The translations under genes and the position numbers were made by a program. Source: an uncultured Ignavibacteriales bacterium (GTDB lineage: Bacteria > Zixibacteria > MSB-5A5 > GN15 > FEB-12). Taken from it: a stretch of 64,000 bases of DNA. Position 1 is the first letter of the stretch. The number at the start of each line of letters is the position of its first letter. This document shows positions 16,547-58,703 of this stretch, piece after piece. The notes beneath the pieces were generated by a model. It was given only the letters and a program-made list of their open reading frames with translations. It ran no database searches and was not told the DNA's origin. The stretch is taken from NCBI GenBank assembly GCA_964627305.1, contig CAZVHP010000005.1:162458-226457 (forward strand). The letters are read 5' to 3'.

Positions 16547-17263
16547 GTGCAAAACTATAATATGAATATGAAACCCATTGTGCTCACAGCGACCTTGCTT
16601 CTGGTGTCCGGAAGCATCTTGGGCGAACCGGTCCTGAAGATCGAACCAGAGGTGTTCCAGTTCGGCATGATCCCCCGCGAGGCCACTGTTGCTCACTATT
16701 TCTGGTTTGAGTCAGCCGGCACTGACACAGTTTTCATTGACAGCATCAAGACCGGGTGTGCCTGCGCGACGATGCCGATAGAGCAGGAACACCTTGCGCC
16801 CGGTGAGAAGATGCGGGTTGGCCTGTTCTGGGATGTCGGAAAACGGATTGGCTCGGTTTTGAGTCATCCCTATATTTTCTACAACGGCAAGGAGCTGCCC
16901 ACGTTTGCCGGCCTTCGGGGGCAATGTCTGCTGCACATGGACAGCCTGCGGCCGGTAACGGTGCGACCGCACCGCGTGGACTTCGTCCGCCTGCCCGCAA
17001 CCTCAAAGTCCATTGACGAGATCGAGTTAGCTTTCTTAAACCTCTCGGATGAGCGGCTGGACCTGACTGTTGTGGCGAACAGCGCCGAGGAACTGATCGA
17101 ACTGAGGCTTCCCAAATCGCTCAAAGCCGGCGCAAGTGTCACTGGCAGGGTGATTGTCCGGCCCGAGCATGCCGATGAACCATTTGAGCGGTCTTTTACG
17201 CTGGAATTCTCTGACGAGAACCGGACACGGCTTACAGTACCTGTCCGACGTAAGGTATATTAG
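16547..17263 (+). CDS. DUF1573 domain protein, paralogue 1
   Basis: Signal peptide, then FQFGMIPREATVAHYFWFESAGTDTVFIDSIKTGCACATMP (DUF1573 pattern with a Cys-x-Cys). The C-terminal module ends RLTVPVRRKVY. The start could also be ATG 16562 or 16568. Confidence 0.75.
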   Translation: MQNYNMNMKPIVLTATLLLVSGSILGEPVLKIEPEVFQFGMIPREATVAHYFWFESAGTDTVFIDSIKTGCACATMPIEQEHLAPGEKMRVGLFWDVGKRIGSVLSHPYIFYNGKELPTFAGLRGQCLLHMDSLRPVTVRPHRVDFVRLPATSKSIDEIELAFLNLSDERLDLTVVANSAEELIELRLPKSLKAGASVTGRVIVRPEHADEPFERSFTLEFSDENRTRLTVPVRRKVY

Positions 17264-17396
17264 ACTGTGTTTGCAAGGCTGAAAGAATACTGCAGTAGCC
17301 CCGACAGGTCCTTTGGCCGACCGCTTTCGGGGTTCGAATGTGCACGGAACTTGTATAATGATGACAACCCACATGAACCATGAAAGGTAGCCTACC

Positions 17397-18221
17397 GTGA
17401 ATCTGTCACGATACCGAATCGCCGTTTGTGTTCTGGTAGCATTACTGGGCGCCGCTTCGATGGCGACGGCGGCACCACGCCTGGATATCGAAGGAGACTC
17501 TTTCGATTTCGGCTTCGTACCGCAGAATTCCAAGATCACGCACTCCTTCTGGCTGAAATCGACAGGCGATGACACGCTGCGGATTGTCCGCGTGGTGCCT
17601 GGGTGAGGGTGCACGCAAGCGCCCTTGCAGAAGGACGCTATCGCTGTCGGTGACAGCGCAGAGCTTGAGATTATTTTCGACACGAGGCAGTACAACCGGA
17701 AGATGTCCAAACGACCGAAGATCATTACCAATATCGGTCCGCCGGACAAGCACGTTGCCATTAGTTGTACGCCGGTGGTGCGACCGGATTCGACATATCC
17801 GATCACCTTCAACCCGTACAAGCTTGATCTGACTCAGTTCGGCGAGAAGGTACGCGAGAATGTTACATTCGATATTACTAACGTCTCCGATCAGAAGGTC
17901 CAGTTCGAAGTCATTGCCACCCGCGATAATCTGTGGGAGATCGAGTTGCCGAAGTCGATTGATCCGGGAAAGACGAAGAAGGCAGTTCTCAAACTCACCA
18001 GGCAGGGTTTGGAGCAATCCTTCGAGAAGTCATTTACCATCCAGGTGAACGATGAGAACAAGAGCCGCTTCACAGTCCCGGTTAAGCGGTCAATCCATAC
18101 TGCTCGTCAGCACCGAGTCGTGACCCCCGCGACGACGACCAACCCGACAAGCGCGACTGGTACTGAGGGAAAAGCCGGCACCGGATCGACACAGAAAGAC
18201 AAGGGCAAAGGCGGCAAGTAG
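17397..18221 (+). CDS. DUF1573 domain protein, paralogue 2, with one in-frame TGA (17604-17606) at the conserved Cys position. Either a candidate selenoprotein or a recent pseudogene.
   Basis: Track ORFs 17397..17606 and 17625..18221 share a frame. The joined product reads ...FDFGFVPQNSKITHSFWLKSTGDDTLRIVRVVPG[TGA]GCTQAPLQKDAIAVGDSAELEIIFD... and is collinear with paralogues 1 and 3. Confidence 0.6.
17607..17658 (+). promoter_or_regulatory. Candidate SECIS-like hairpins downstream of the in-frame TGA
   Basis: GGGUGC-ACGCAA-GCGCCC (17607-17624), or alternatively GCAAG-CGCC-CUUGC (17615-17628), and CGCUGUC-GGU-GACAGCG (17642-17658). Folded by eye only. Confidence 0.3.
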
Positions 18222-19925: not shown

Positions 19926-21266
19926 TCAAAAATCCGGACGTTGCCCCCGACCGTCATAGGGGTACTGCAGACGGTAGTCGCCATCAAGATTGAGATCGAC
20001 AAAGGTGAATTTGCGATAGATGCCGTCGCGGTAATAGTGCCACTCCTGATACGGCACACTCGACAGCGAATAAGGGTAGTCATCGATCTCATCAGGCTCA
20101 CCGTGGCTGATGTAGATGCGTCCCCTGTCGGTCTTCCATCCCTCGCGGGTCATATGTCCGAAGCTCTCGTTGGCAACTCGCACGCGCCGGTAGAACTCGG
20201 TCTTGATCTCATTGGTGGTACTTCCGGGCGTCGGGTCAAGCTTGTTCCAGAACTCGTTGAACGCGGTCCGTCGTTCTTCGACAGTCTCAGCCTTCTTGAG
20301 TTCGTCTACTTCCTTGCGACTGGCAATGTATGAGATCTGCTCCACCAGCGTCTCATAGTCCTGATCCATGAGGCTTTCGACGGACCAGTAAACAGCGAAC
20401 TCTGCTCGCTGCCTGTCAAGCGTTCGGAGTCGACGGCCGAGCAATGACACCTCCAGTTCGTATTCTCCCGGGTCGAAGCCATCAACCGTGATGTTGCGCA
20501 GTTGCCGAGTAATCGGCTCGGTCAATTCGGTATGGAGCGAGTCTCGGTAGACCATGGAGCGGTTCTTCTTGCGTATCAGGGTCTCGACAACGACACTTTC
20601 GATGTCGGAGCTTCCGCGATAGATTTCGACATAGAACAACAGGGGATTGTCACCATCGCCCCCATAGCCATGATTCAAAGAAGGGACGACTACCATATTG
20701 CCCTTGTGAAATGCGCTGTGCTCGGCCTGCGTGGAATCCCAGGAACCAACGGCCTGGACCATCTCTATATCTGAAAGTCGGGGCGGCTTATCCCACCGCG
20801 GTGTCAAATCAACCTCGAAGTCGTGAGTATGAGTCGGCCCGCCATCGAGACTGCGGAGGGTTGCCCTGATCTTGTACCTCCCGGGCTGCAGAAGGAAGTT
20901 TGCCTGGTCAGTGCGATAGTCGAGGGCCGAGCGACCGGCGTCGGCCACCCGCACCGTTCCCTCCTTGGTGTATACATCGCCGGGCTGACCGCTTCTGCCC
21001 TGAACGTCTATCCTGACGTAGTAACGAGCCTGATCTACCCTGTCCTGCTTCTTGAACTTCAGCGCGTTGTTGAAGAACTGGAAATACACTTCAAGCCGAA
21101 CGAGCGAAGAATCCAGCGTGGAGAACTGCGCCCAGTCGACCAGAAACTTGGCGTTGTTGTCCGGTGTCTTCGTGACGATGCGCCCGGCCTGCGCCGACGT
21201 TCCCGCCAATCCCACGACCAGTAACGTCACCAACACCAATCTGAGTAGAGTATTCTTCATAGACAT
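19926..21266 (-). CDS. GWxTD domain-containing secreted protein
   Basis: Signal peptide (LVLVTLLVVGLAGTSAQA) and C-terminal REGWKTDRGRIYISHGEPDEIDDYP...VPYQEWHYY. Confidence 0.78.
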   Translation of the reverse strand: MSMKNTLLRLVLVTLLVVGLAGTSAQAGRIVTKTPDNNAKFLVDWAQFSTLDSSLVRLEVYFQFFNNALKFKKQDRVDQARYYVRIDVQGRSGQPGDVYTKEGTVRVADAGRSALDYRTDQANFLLQPGRYKIRATLRSLDGGPTHTHDFEVDLTPRWDKPPRLSDIEMVQAVGSWDSTQAEHSAFHKGNMVVVPSLNHGYGGDGDNPLLFYVEIYRGSSDIESVVVETLIRKKNRSMVYRDSLHTELTEPITRQLRNITVDGFDPGEYELEVSLLGRRLRTLDRQRAEFAVYWSVESLMDQDYETLVEQISYIASRKEVDELKKAETVEERRTAFNEFWNKLDPTPGSTTNEIKTEFYRRVRVANESFGHMTREGWKTDRGRIYISHGEPDEIDDYPYSLSSVPYQEWHYYRDGIYRKFTFVDLNLDGDYRLQYPYDGRGQRPDF

Positions 21267-38302: not shown

Positions 38303-39292
38303 ATGCGAGCTTACGAAGACATACTGCAACTTGTCGGCCATACCCCCCTGTTGAGGCTGAAGACCGGGATACCAGACCCGGGACCACGGGCATACGTCAA
38401 ACTCGAATTCTTCAACCCAACCGGTTCGATCAAAGACCGGATGACGTTCCACATTCTCAGGAAGGCCCTCGCCGAAGGACACCTGAAGCCGGGCGACACG
38501 GTCATCGACAACACCTCCGGCAATACCGGATCAGCCCTCGCCATGATGGCTTCCGTGATGGGCCTGAAAGCCATCCTGACAACGCCGGAGAAAACCAGCA
38601 AAGAGAAGACGGACCTGATTCACTCCTACGGTGCCGAGGTGATCGTCACGCCCTCCGACCTCCCGCATGAACACCCGGAGGGATGCTTCATGGTGGCCCG
38701 TCGACTGGCCCAAGAGAACGGCTATTTCGACCTGAACCAGTACCACAGCCCGGAGAACATCGAGGCCCACTACGTAAGCACGGGACCCGAGATCTGGGAA
38801 GATACTCGCGGCAGCATTACTCACTTCGTGTGCGGCATTGGTACCGGCGGAACCTTCTCCGGGACTGCCCGTTTCCTGAAAGAGAAGAATCCGCACATCA
38901 GGTGCATCGCGGTCGACCCGGAGGGATCAGTGTTGGCGGACTACATCAAGGATCGACGGGAAGTCGAGGGCCACGCATACAAGGTTGAGGGCATCGGGTC
39001 CGATGTCATCACGCGCGCCCTGTTGCCCGAGCTGGTCGATGAAGTAATCACGGTCTCGGACCGTGACTCCTTTGAACGCGCCCGGCTGGTGGCCCGCAAC
39101 GAGGGCCTTCTCGGCGGCGGGTCATCGGGATCAGTGGCGTTTGCCATGGAACAGGTCGCCCGCAGCGTGAGCGAACGGTCCGTCATTATCGGGATTTTCG
39201 CCGATGCCGGAATCCGCTACCTGAGCAAGTGCTATAATGATGACTGGATGCGGGCGCAGGGATACCTGCCGGCACTGGAACTGGAAAAGTGA
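38303..39292 (+). CDS. PLP-dependent cysteine synthase family protein (CysK/CysM/CBS-like)
   Basis: HTPLLRL...KLEFFNPTGSIKDRM (PLP Lys), SGNTGSALA, GIGTGGTFSG. Start at ATG 38303. Confidence 0.85.
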   Translation: MRAYEDILQLVGHTPLLRLKTGIPDPGPRAYVKLEFFNPTGSIKDRMTFHILRKALAEGHLKPGDTVIDNTSGNTGSALAMMASVMGLKAILTTPEKTSKEKTDLIHSYGAEVIVTPSDLPHEHPEGCFMVARRLAQENGYFDLNQYHSPENIEAHYVSTGPEIWEDTRGSITHFVCGIGTGGTFSGTARFLKEKNPHIRCIAVDPEGSVLADYIKDRREVEGHAYKVEGIGSDVITRALLPELVDEVITVSDRDSFERARLVARNEGLLGGGSSGSVAFAMEQVARSVSERSVIIGIFADAGIRYLSKCYNDDWMRAQGYLPALELEK

Positions 39293-39294
39293 TC

Positions 39295-40011
39295 ATGACA
39301 ACGAACCTGAGTACAACATTCACAATCACTATGGCGCTGATGCTTCTGCTCACCAGTGCCATTCACGCGGCGGGTCAGGAGTATTCACGGGACGACCTGG
39401 TGTTTCAGCCACAGGTATTCGAGTACGGGAGTATCGGTATCGACTACTCCGTTCATCATGACTTTCACCTGATCAACCAAGGCAGGATGCCCGTTAGAAT
39501 TCTGGACACCGAGATTGACTGCGATTGCACTACCCTGCGACTTTCCGACAGCGTCGCGGCACCGGGGGACACCATCGTCCTCAAGACAAAGCTCAAAACG
39601 AGCAATCTCTATGGCCCGACAGGCAAATCTGTTATTGTTGTTACCGATCACCCCCTTCTCGAGCGAATCGAGTATCGGTTTCCGGCCGAGGTTGGTCAGT
39701 GGAGCCAGGGGTTCAAGCCCCTGCCACTCGGTCTGATGTTCCTGCCGGGAGCCAAGCCCCAGGAAGTCCGTATCTGGAACCGGCACTTCCCCAGAGCGAC
39801 AATGGAAATCGCCGATCAATACGACAGCACTTTCACCGTGGAGCTGGTCAAGGCCAGTGTAGCAAAGGGTGAGATGCTGACGCTTAGTGTATCACCGAAC
39901 AAGGACTTGCCACCCGGCACGCACACTTCGAACTTCACTCTCAGCATTGTACGTGAGGGTAAGGAAACGCCCGTCCGTCTGACGATTCCGGTCAAAGCGG
40001 TCAAATACTAA
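39295..40011 (+). CDS. DUF1573 domain protein, paralogue 3
   Basis: Signal peptide, FEYGSIGIDYSVHHDFHLINQGRMPVRILDTEIDCDCTTLRL, and a C-terminal module ending RLTIPVKAVKY. The start overlaps the cysteine-synthase stop (GTGATCATG). Confidence 0.75.
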   Translation: MTTNLSTTFTITMALMLLLTSAIHAAGQEYSRDDLVFQPQVFEYGSIGIDYSVHHDFHLINQGRMPVRILDTEIDCDCTTLRLSDSVAAPGDTIVLKTKLKTSNLYGPTGKSVIVVTDHPLLERIEYRFPAEVGQWSQGFKPLPLGLMFLPGAKPQEVRIWNRHFPRATMEIADQYDSTFTVELVKASVAKGEMLTLSVSPNKDLPPGTHTSNFTLSIVREGKETPVRLTIPVKAVKY

Positions 40012-57422: not shown

Positions 57423-58703
57423 TTACCTCGACGTTAGCTCACCCGTAATTCTACTATCGGCCTTTTCTGCTGCCAGAAGCACCCTGACCAACTGAGAAAG
57501 CTCCGACACCTGCTCCTGCAGTTCGTCCAACTTCAGGCTCATCTGCTCCATCTGCCGGACTTTGCTGGCCAGTTCCTGCTGGGTCCGGTCCAACTCCTTG
57601 ATCGCCGCCAGGGCAACACCGGCAGGGTCAATCGAGGAAATCGCGGTGCTGTCCTGACCCACACCGAAGGCGGCGCGGAAGTCCTGTGCCGTCGGCCCGA
57701 TATGCGTAATCTCAGGGGTCTGGCTCTTGTAGTTCCATCTCAATATATCCACACTCTGCAGTTGTAGCAAGATCTCCCGACCGCTCACCCTGGCGAAATT
57801 CTCCTTGAGGTTCCTGTCAGAGGCGTTCGTCCAGTCACCACCTTCGGACAGGTACGCCCCGACAATCGTGTTGATCAGTTTGTCGGGTTCGTATGATGCT
57901 GTCCCACCCGTGTTCGTAACGAAGATGCCGCCGTCAGCGCGAATGACCACCTGTTCGGCACCACCGGTGCCGATGAAATCCCCTCACGTGACGCAGTCAT
58001 TGGCAGCAAGTACAATGCAGCCATCGTGCGCCGCATTGCCGTTGTTGCCCATCGCTAACGACATCAGTCCGGCCGCCTGACATCCCTTGCCTCCCGGGAC
58101 CGATGAATACGCACCGGCGGCAACATTGTTGGTACCCGCCAGCACGCCGGAGTAGTCGCCGTAGGCATAGTTATCGAATCCGCCGATGACGGCTGAGTTG
58201 TCACCCAAAGTGCTGTTGCCGGCTCCGGCACAGAAGGCGGACTTGCCGGGATTGTAGTTGGAACTGCCCACAGTCAGCTTATCGCTGATGACCAGATCGC
58301 CCTTGATCGATCCCGCCAGAGCGCCATCCACCGAGGCCACCTTGAACGCAAATGGCACGGTCACAAGCTGGGCTCGCGGCGAGAGTTCTGCCGCACCGTT
58401 GACGCTGACTCCGAGCCAGCACAAACTGTCTGCGAAGAGGCCGACGTCCAGTGGAGTGAGTGCTCCCAGACGGGTGCTGAACAAACCATCAGCAATCTGC
58501 ATACCGCTTTGCGTTTCCTGCCAAATGGCCGTGCCACCAACAGGATCGTTATACAATGAAAAAGTCAGGTTGTGATTGCCGCTGACCGGATCGCCGCTGC
58601 TGTCATACAGCATCCCTTGGTAGGAGATCTGTGCCGGTACCCCGGCATAGATGTTGAGGGCCAGCAGGACAACACCGCCCAGGGCCAGAAGAATCGCTCG
58701 CAT
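57423..58703 (-). CDS. Tail-fibre-type surface protein (YadA-head-like repeats plus C-terminal S74 intramolecular-chaperone domain) with one in-frame TGA (57984-57986)
   Basis: Track ORFs 57984..58703 and 57423..57950 share a frame. The junction reads ...NAAHDGCIVLAANDCVT[TGA]GDFIGTGGAEQVVIRADGGIFVTNTGG. The C-terminal SDRNLKENF...HIGPTAQDF...IDPAGVALAAIKEL plus a coiled coil is the S74 chaperone pattern. The N-terminal piece has the signal peptide and the C-terminal piece has none. Confidence 0.55.
57955..57973 (-). promoter_or_regulatory. Candidate SECIS-like hairpin after the tail-fibre TGA
   Basis: On the minus strand UCGGCACC-GGU-GGUGCCGA, an 8-bp perfect stem with a GGU triloop, beginning 10 nt after the TGA. 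Folded by eye only. Confidence 0.3.

Follow-up and report, generated by a model that had tools for sequence, protein, structure and literature searches.

We describe here a 64,000-nucleotide stretch of DNA from an uncultured Ignavibacteriales bacterium (Zixibacteria in its GTDB lineage; assembly GCA_964627305.1, contig CAZVHP010000005.1, positions 162,458 to 226,457; hereafter the window, in whose own numbering all positions are given). Sequence comparison indicates that the gene at 17397-18221 is, with high probability, a real selenoprotein gene, in which the UGA at codon 70 is read as selenocysteine (Sec) and U-G-C stands for the C-G-C of its family, the DUF1573 proteins. The reading of UGA as Sec is strongly supported, because the TGA is conserved, because purifying selection acts on both sides of it and because an RNA structure resembling a Sec insertion sequence (SECIS) was found only in the forms of the gene that carry TGA. 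In this sense, the product would be one exported protein of 274 amino acids with two immunoglobulin-like (Ig-like) domains of the ASH/HYDIN type, codon 70 being decoded as Sec. The gene and the parts of its product are predicted as follows.

17397 to 18221, plus strand: full coding sequence of the candidate selenoprotein, with a GTG start, the Sec-TGA at 17604-17606 and a TAG stop at 18219-18221 (274 amino acids)
17397 to 17474, plus strand: predicted signal peptide (MNLSRYRIAVCVLVALLGAASMATAA), a hydrophobic N-terminus followed by AAP, common to homologues
17487 to 17762, plus strand: DUF1573 / HYDIN-VesB-like Ig domain, residues 31-122, which holds U70-G71-C72
17604 to 17606, plus strand: in-frame TGA read as Sec, aligned with the first Cys of C-G-C-T
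17778 to 18092, plus strand: second Ig-like beta-sandwich domain, ending in RFTVPVKR (strands at residues 136-231, predicted local distance difference test score, pLDDT, >90)
18093 to 18218, plus strand: low-complexity, T/G/K-rich C-terminal tail (pLDDT 54-72), whose length and sequence differ between homologues

Two open reading frames (ORFs), 17397..17606 (GTG start, 69 amino acids) and 17625..18221, share one frame whose sole interruption is the TGA at 17604-17606. The 274-residue read-through product proposed in the initial annotation was borne out by frame and translation, and contains the motif RIVRVVPG-U-GCTQAPL. With Cys put at the TGA, the Pfam model DUF1573 (PF07610) matches residues 31-122 at 88.7 bits (2.7e-25; cut-off 26.1), so that one domain spans the TGA; a second match is to PF22544, the HYDIN/VesB-like Ig domain (6.8e-18). 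The same annotation had described the product as collinear with two paralogues in the window, with the TGA falling on the first Cys of their Cys pair, and this holds in an alignment of 26 sequences (the gene, both paralogues and 23 database homologues). There, the column of the TGA coincides with the first Cys of a nearly invariant PG-C-G-C-T, the two paralogues (16547..17263 and 39289..40011) have Cys in that column, and the segments PYKLDL, FEKSFT and RFTVPVKR of the second module are kept across homologues.

The AlphaFold2 model of the 274-residue protein (mean pLDDT 88.5, predicted template modelling score 0.75) consists of a signal helix, two tandem beta-sandwiches and the disordered T/G/K-rich tail. 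The N-terminal helix occupies residues 3-22, within the signal peptide region; this peptide implies, from its sequence, that the protein is exported from the cytoplasm, with an inferred cleavage site. Residues 68-72 (P-G-U-G-C) form a loop following the strand at residues 61-67. A sequence search of the Protein Data Bank (PDB) found no solved relative. The top fold matches of the model are ASH/HYDIN-type tandem Ig domains and the uncharacterised Porphyromonas gingivalis structure 2qsv, and the fold does not assign an enzymatic role.

Every automated annotation calls two products at this locus, a 69-residue exported peptide, terminated by the TGA, and a 198-residue protein started at the TTG at 17625. 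We consider it very improbable that this call describes the true products, since it would halve the DUF1573 domain and one beta-sandwich and would leave the downstream part without the signal peptide that is found in all full-length homologues. In addition, the TTG and the 18-nt gap before it fall inside coding sequence that is constrained at the RNA level, as described below.

We then consider how the TGA is distributed among related genomes. Tabulated over loci from a scan with one genome per species, made up of Zixibacteria/GN15-type metagenome-assembled genomes (MAGs), the codon 70 column holds TGA in 75 of 80 loci, or in 74 of 75 assemblies as counted by accession prefix, while 17 close Cys forms have TGC or TGT; these 80 loci are the best matches to a Sec-type query, and the figure describes the orthologous group and not DUF1573 as a whole. 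At four of the five loci that have Cys only, the genome also holds a TGA copy. Apart from these 80, the TGA is present in loci L001-L013, and it is kept in relatives at 55-76% identity. An identical 198-residue fragment, produced by the same split, appears in the records of 20 contigs, which come from independent assemblies of several Joint Genome Institute (JGI) samples, and all six of the loci that were retrieved have the TGA. Many of the MAGs with this Zixibacteria-type gene (for example L014, L023 and L033) are deposited as 'uncultured Ignavibacteriales bacterium', 'Calditrichota' or 'Candidatus Deferrimicrobium', and such taxonomic labels are probably loose or incorrect.

Decay around the TGA was looked for as well. 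The gene at 17397-18221 has no frameshift and no further stop, and, in comparisons of the window with its relatives, the ratio of nonsynonymous to synonymous substitution rates (dN/dS) comes to 0.07-0.2, upstream as well as downstream of the TGA, which indicates that both halves are translated in this frame. These results bear on whether the gene is a pseudogene, or whether a sequencing or assembly error turned TGC or TGT into TGA in one of several DUF1573 paralogues. Such an origin might be suspected as gene callers split the gene and the Cys paralogues in the same window could compensate for its loss. We regard it as hardly credible, given that 20 independent contigs agree on the TGA and nearly all the related assemblies have it, that selection is maintained on both sides without any additional lesion, and that the RNA structure is kept in the TGA forms only.

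Regarding this RNA structure, we analyzed a gap-free alignment of 80 distinct TGA-bearing sequences, in which two elements follow the TGA.

17642 to 17658, plus strand: hairpin c, putative SelB-binding SECIS apex, with core GCUGUC-GGU-GACAGC at 17643-17657 and loop GGU at 17649-17651, encoding A-V-G-D-S
17619 to 17638, plus strand: helix b, variable covarying spacer helix, GCG-C-CCUU / GCAG / AAGG-A-CGC, -7.5 kcal/mol, loop 20 nt downstream of the UGA

Hairpin c has a stem of 6-7 bp (-6.8 to -9.2 kcal/mol, the latter with an extra C-G pair) and a loop 42 nt downstream of the UGA. It is near-invariant across the 80 sequences: five of the six pairs do not vary, 99.4% of cells are paired, and at the closing pair 74 sequences have G-C, three have G-U and three a mismatch. 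The loop is mostly GGU, with GGC in four sequences. By this, hairpin c fixes three synonymous sites across proteins that are only about 50% identical. The 17 closest Cys forms encode A-[P/A/V]-G-D-S in varied codons (e.g. GCC GTG GGC GAC AGC), in which the hairpin cannot form, and the mean minimum free energy (MFE) of the segment is -8.9 kcal/mol in Sec forms versus -4.6 kcal/mol in Cys forms (Mann-Whitney p = 1e-8). Of the hairpins that the initial annotation placed after the TGA, the one at 17642-17658 with its GGU triloop is conserved in other TGA-bearing orthologues, and those at 17607-17624 and 17615-17628 are not. The hairpin at 17607-17624 was rejected as a conserved element: its energy is -13.6 kcal/mol in the window and -6.5 in L001, close relatives carry a G-to-A change, and its columns are without covariation.

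Helix b sits between the UGA and hairpin c, where the A-P-L codons pair with the K-x-x codons. In most sequences it begins 11-12 nt and ends 35-36 nt after the UGA, abutting hairpin c. The paired columns (21-28 with 37-44 of the alignment) contain 59 double-change cells versus 25.3 +/- 4.3 in shuffled alignments, a value that none of 500 shuffles reaches; the pair 24-41, for instance, is AU in 23 sequences, UA in 21, GU in 14 and GC in 11. In an explicit structure test the register of helix b outscores all slid controls, and the MFE of its segment is -9.95 kcal/mol in Sec forms versus -6.3 kcal/mol in Cys forms (p = 1.4e-5). Counted with helix b collapsed, the hairpin c loop comes at a median of 17 nt after the UGA (interquartile range 16-22). 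Rfam at gathering thresholds returned four tRNAs only over the whole window, and a permissive Rfam scan of 17560-17720 gave chance-level matches only, none of them to a bacterial SECIS family.

We also found a second site of this type. A scan of the whole window required a TGA to have an open frame on both sides and, behind it, a hairpin with a GGU triloop and a stem of 6 bp or more; exactly two sites pass, 17604-17606 and 57984-57986. Hairpins with a GGU triloop and such a stem number seven on both strands of the window, and two of them sit behind in-frame TGAs. The other in-frame TGAs of a crude window-wide list are mostly antisense noise, the two named being those that pass the hairpin filter. 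The second site has the following predicted features.

57423 to 58703, minus strand: second candidate selenoprotein gene, 426 amino acids, with its TGA at 57984-57986
57955 to 57973, minus strand: canonical bacterial SECIS (bSECIS) of the second gene, with an 8-bp stem UCGGCACC/GGUGCCGA and a GGU loop, -13.2 kcal/mol

The ORF at 57984..58703 (minus) stops at the TGA (57986-57984), and the frame stays open for 186 codons into a Peptidase_S74 domain ('chaperone of endosialidase'). The whole protein would comprise a signal peptide, YadA-head-like G-x-x-N-x-A-x-G repeats, C-V-T-U and then Peptidase_S74. Its hairpin begins 10 nt after the TGA and the loop begins 18 nt from the UGA, a textbook bSECIS. 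The split of this gene recurs in independent assemblies, and both TGA and hairpin are kept in two relatives (L096 and L097) at 71-76% identity, in which the two substitutions in the stem are C-to-U changes that preserve pairing as G-U. Full-length homologues have Q, I, T, L, G or P at the Sec column and Ser where the clade has the upstream Cys, and the CxxU motif is therefore specific to this lineage. No mention of this candidate was found by keyword in the papers checked. The occurrence of a second in-frame TGA with a SECIS suggests that the organism decodes UGA as Sec. One more hairpin with a GGU triloop was noted at 21231 (minus strand); it has a stem of 7 bp and is located about 35 nt after the ATG of the GWxTD-domain gene 19926..21266, and under the scan criteria no in-frame TGA lies upstream of it.

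Which of the two elements downstream of codon 70 would recruit SelB was weighed next to the published bSECIS model, which has a stem of at least 4 bp, a small apical loop opening with G and then G/U, and a distance of 16-37 nt from the UGA to the loop (PMC13188914). For membership we asked for four or more stem pairs, G in the first two loop positions, a spacing of 16-37 nt and an MFE of -7.5 kcal/mol or lower. Stem and loop of hairpin c fit, its energy fits with the extra C-G pair (-9.2) and its spacing is 42 nt; helix b fits the spacing. An element of two helices is supported by its conservation and covariation. We favour hairpin c as the SelB-binding apex, because it has the nucleotide-level invariance expected of an apex recognised by a protein and because the C-GGU-G apex recurs on the canonical SECIS elsewhere in the window. 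SelB carrying Sec-tRNA(Sec) would then bind the hairpin GCUGUC-GGU-GACAGC (17643-17657), and helix b, once folded, may act as a spacer that brings the loop of hairpin c from 42 nt to an effective distance of about 16-18 nt from the UGA. This collapsed spacing matches the 18 nt of the SECIS of the second gene.

Besides the scope of the 80 loci given above, several points weigh against these readings. The 42 nt between UGA and hairpin c are beyond the 16-37 nt of the published model, and a bSECIS search might pick helix b instead, the loop of which usually opens with G and is some 20 nt away from the UGA. The register of helix b is displaced by 2 nt in the clade of the window, and RNAalifold unaided recovered hairpin c and not helix b, for which the explicit structure test was needed. 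Finally, neither the 64-kb window nor some 10 kb of its right flank yielded selA, selB, selD or tRNA-Sec: ARAGORN reported no tRNA-Sec in the window or in the flank loci, and no selA, selB or selD appeared in Pfam scans of 20 window ORFs or in precomputed Pfam tables of the flanks. A literature search found no paper tying Zixibacteria to the use of Sec.

On the first of these points, it is conceivable that Sec is inserted but that helix b is the SECIS bound by SelB, with hairpin c kept for another purpose such as pausing or mRNA stability. The published spacing and the usual G at the opening of its loop speak for helix b. However, helix b varies in sequence and in register whereas hairpin c is nucleotide-invariant, as would be expected of an apex that a protein recognises, and the sole hairpin of the second gene has the same C-GGU-G apex as hairpin c. 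On balance we consider a SelB-binding helix b unlikely, and hairpin c keeps its place as the favoured apex.

A further alternative dispenses with selenium: TGA might be read as Trp or Gly under an alternative code (codes 4/25), or by general read-through with a near-cognate tRNA. Two database entries put W at the site, and the Sec machinery was not seen in the window, as this alternative would have it. Nevertheless, of the 45 long, non-overlapping ORFs of the window 18 end in TGA at lengths typical of their families (the second candidate Sec-TGA is counted among them), so TGA acts here as an ordinary stop and the window uses the standard code. In addition, only the two in-frame TGAs described here combine frames open on both sides with a hairpin, each with a G-G-U apical loop of the bSECIS type, and the site aligns with Cys and not with Trp or Gly. 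The two W entries (P0003 / L012:258 and P0013 / L013:1238) have TGA in their DNA and are artefacts of code-4 gene calls on short contigs. For these reasons decoding without selenium, by an alternative code or by general read-through, appears quite improbable, and Sec remains the preferred reading of codon 70. The translation table 4 artefact makes selenoproteins look like Cys-to-Trp variants in public protein entries.

The gene is accompanied in the window by Cys-form relatives.

16547 to 17263, plus strand: Cys-form DUF1573 paralogue directly upstream (IKTG-C-A-C-A), from Pfam and synteny in relatives
39289 to 40011, plus strand: distant Cys-form DUF1573 paralogue (TEID-C-D-C-T), from the alignment

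Two-domain DUF1573 genes occur in tandem arrays, in the window at 16547-18221 and also in L013, L016, L027, L043, L077 and others. In about 30 related loci the Sec gene is preceded by a KTG-C-x-C paralogue, and often it is followed by an extra Cys copy with VPG-C-G-C-T. The window shares with two relatives (73-76% protein identity) the TGA and an order of genes that runs from an FAD oxidase through the Cys-form DUF1573 paralogue and the split gene to two GWxTD genes; in the clade of the window, two GWxTD-domain genes and a MacB/FtsX-RND-OEP export cluster adjoin the DUF1573 genes. The Sec-form protein may cooperate with its Cys-form paralogues, whose genes stand in tandem with its own in many genomes.

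DUF1573 is a large family of unknown function, and the exposed U-x-C suggests a role at the cell envelope in redox or metal chemistry. The pair lies in a surface loop of what would be an extracytoplasmic scaffold, and probably constitutes a redox-active selenenylsulfide or a site that binds a metal or metalloid. The initial annotation had supposed that DUF1573 was unreported as a selenoprotein family and that this gene might found a new one. This is refuted by the literature, as 'OS_HP2, pfam07610, UxC' stands among the known selenoprotein families with 354 Cys homologues (Zhang & Gladyshev 2008, PMC2398784), and by the NCBIfam model NF041425, named 'OS_HP2 family (seleno)protein'. The gene of the window is therefore a new member of a known selenoprotein family, listed since 2008, and the discovery at family level is already old. 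Scored with NF041425, which has a curated cut-off of 100 bits, the protein of the window reaches 77 bits, four other Zixibacterial Sec forms 57-72, a Cys form 70 and the upstream paralogue 32. All the Sec forms are below 100, which places the clade as related to the curated subfamily but outside it, in keeping with the fragmentary gene calls in the protein database.

What is modestly new is the putative two-helix SECIS with its 42-nt spacing, the dominance of the Sec form in the lineage and the second, apparently unlisted candidate selenoprotein. Gene calls for the window gene and its closest relatives all split or mis-translate it, as a 198-residue fragment or with W at the site. Since the genes are miscalled and the NCBIfam model misses the clade, a selenoprotein of dozens of Zixibacteria-type genomes is invisible in databases. 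The two-helix SECIS would also be a concrete case outside the standard bSECIS search model. Taken jointly, these observations would amount to a distinct class of bacterial SECIS (an invariant C-GGU-G hairpin 42 nt off, drawn to canonical distance by a covarying spacer helix), a near-universal and un-annotated selenoprotein of the lineage, and an unlisted surface selenoprotein with tail-fibre-like repeats, Peptidase_S74 and C-x-x-U; we hold this combined reading tentatively, at a little short of an even chance.

Compared with known systems, the OS_HP2 family has the same Pfam domain, the same Sec position (the first Cys of C-x-C, giving U-G-C) and abundant Cys homologues. The Zixibacteria/GN15 clade differs from it in scoring 57-77 bits with NF041425 and in being split by annotation pipelines, and its protein has two domains, with a conserved second Ig-like module. 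The Cys-form paralogues of the same genomes (e.g. 16547..17263 and L039) resemble the Sec form in architecture, signal peptide and position of C-x-C-T, and are often in tandem. However, they have TGC or TGT for TGA, lack the GGU hairpin, vary in the A-x-G-D-S codons and mostly have Pro or Ala at the site where Sec forms have Val. At the level of fold, ASH/HYDIN-type tandem Ig domains (chains of PDB 9ijj and 7sqc; 2qsv of P. gingivalis) share the same predicted two beta-sandwiches, with Foldseek E-values of 1e-8 to 1e-11 at 10-16% sequence identity; no redox or selenium site is known in any of them, and a functional assignment does not follow from them. Regarding the RNA, the bacterial SECIS of the Escherichia coli fdhF type (PMC13188914) is likewise a stem-loop within the coding sequence, shortly 3' of the UGA, with an apical loop of G then G/U. 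In that model the loop lies 16-37 nt from the UGA, whereas here it would lie at 42 nt, with a covarying helix in the gap that makes the whole a putative two-helix element.

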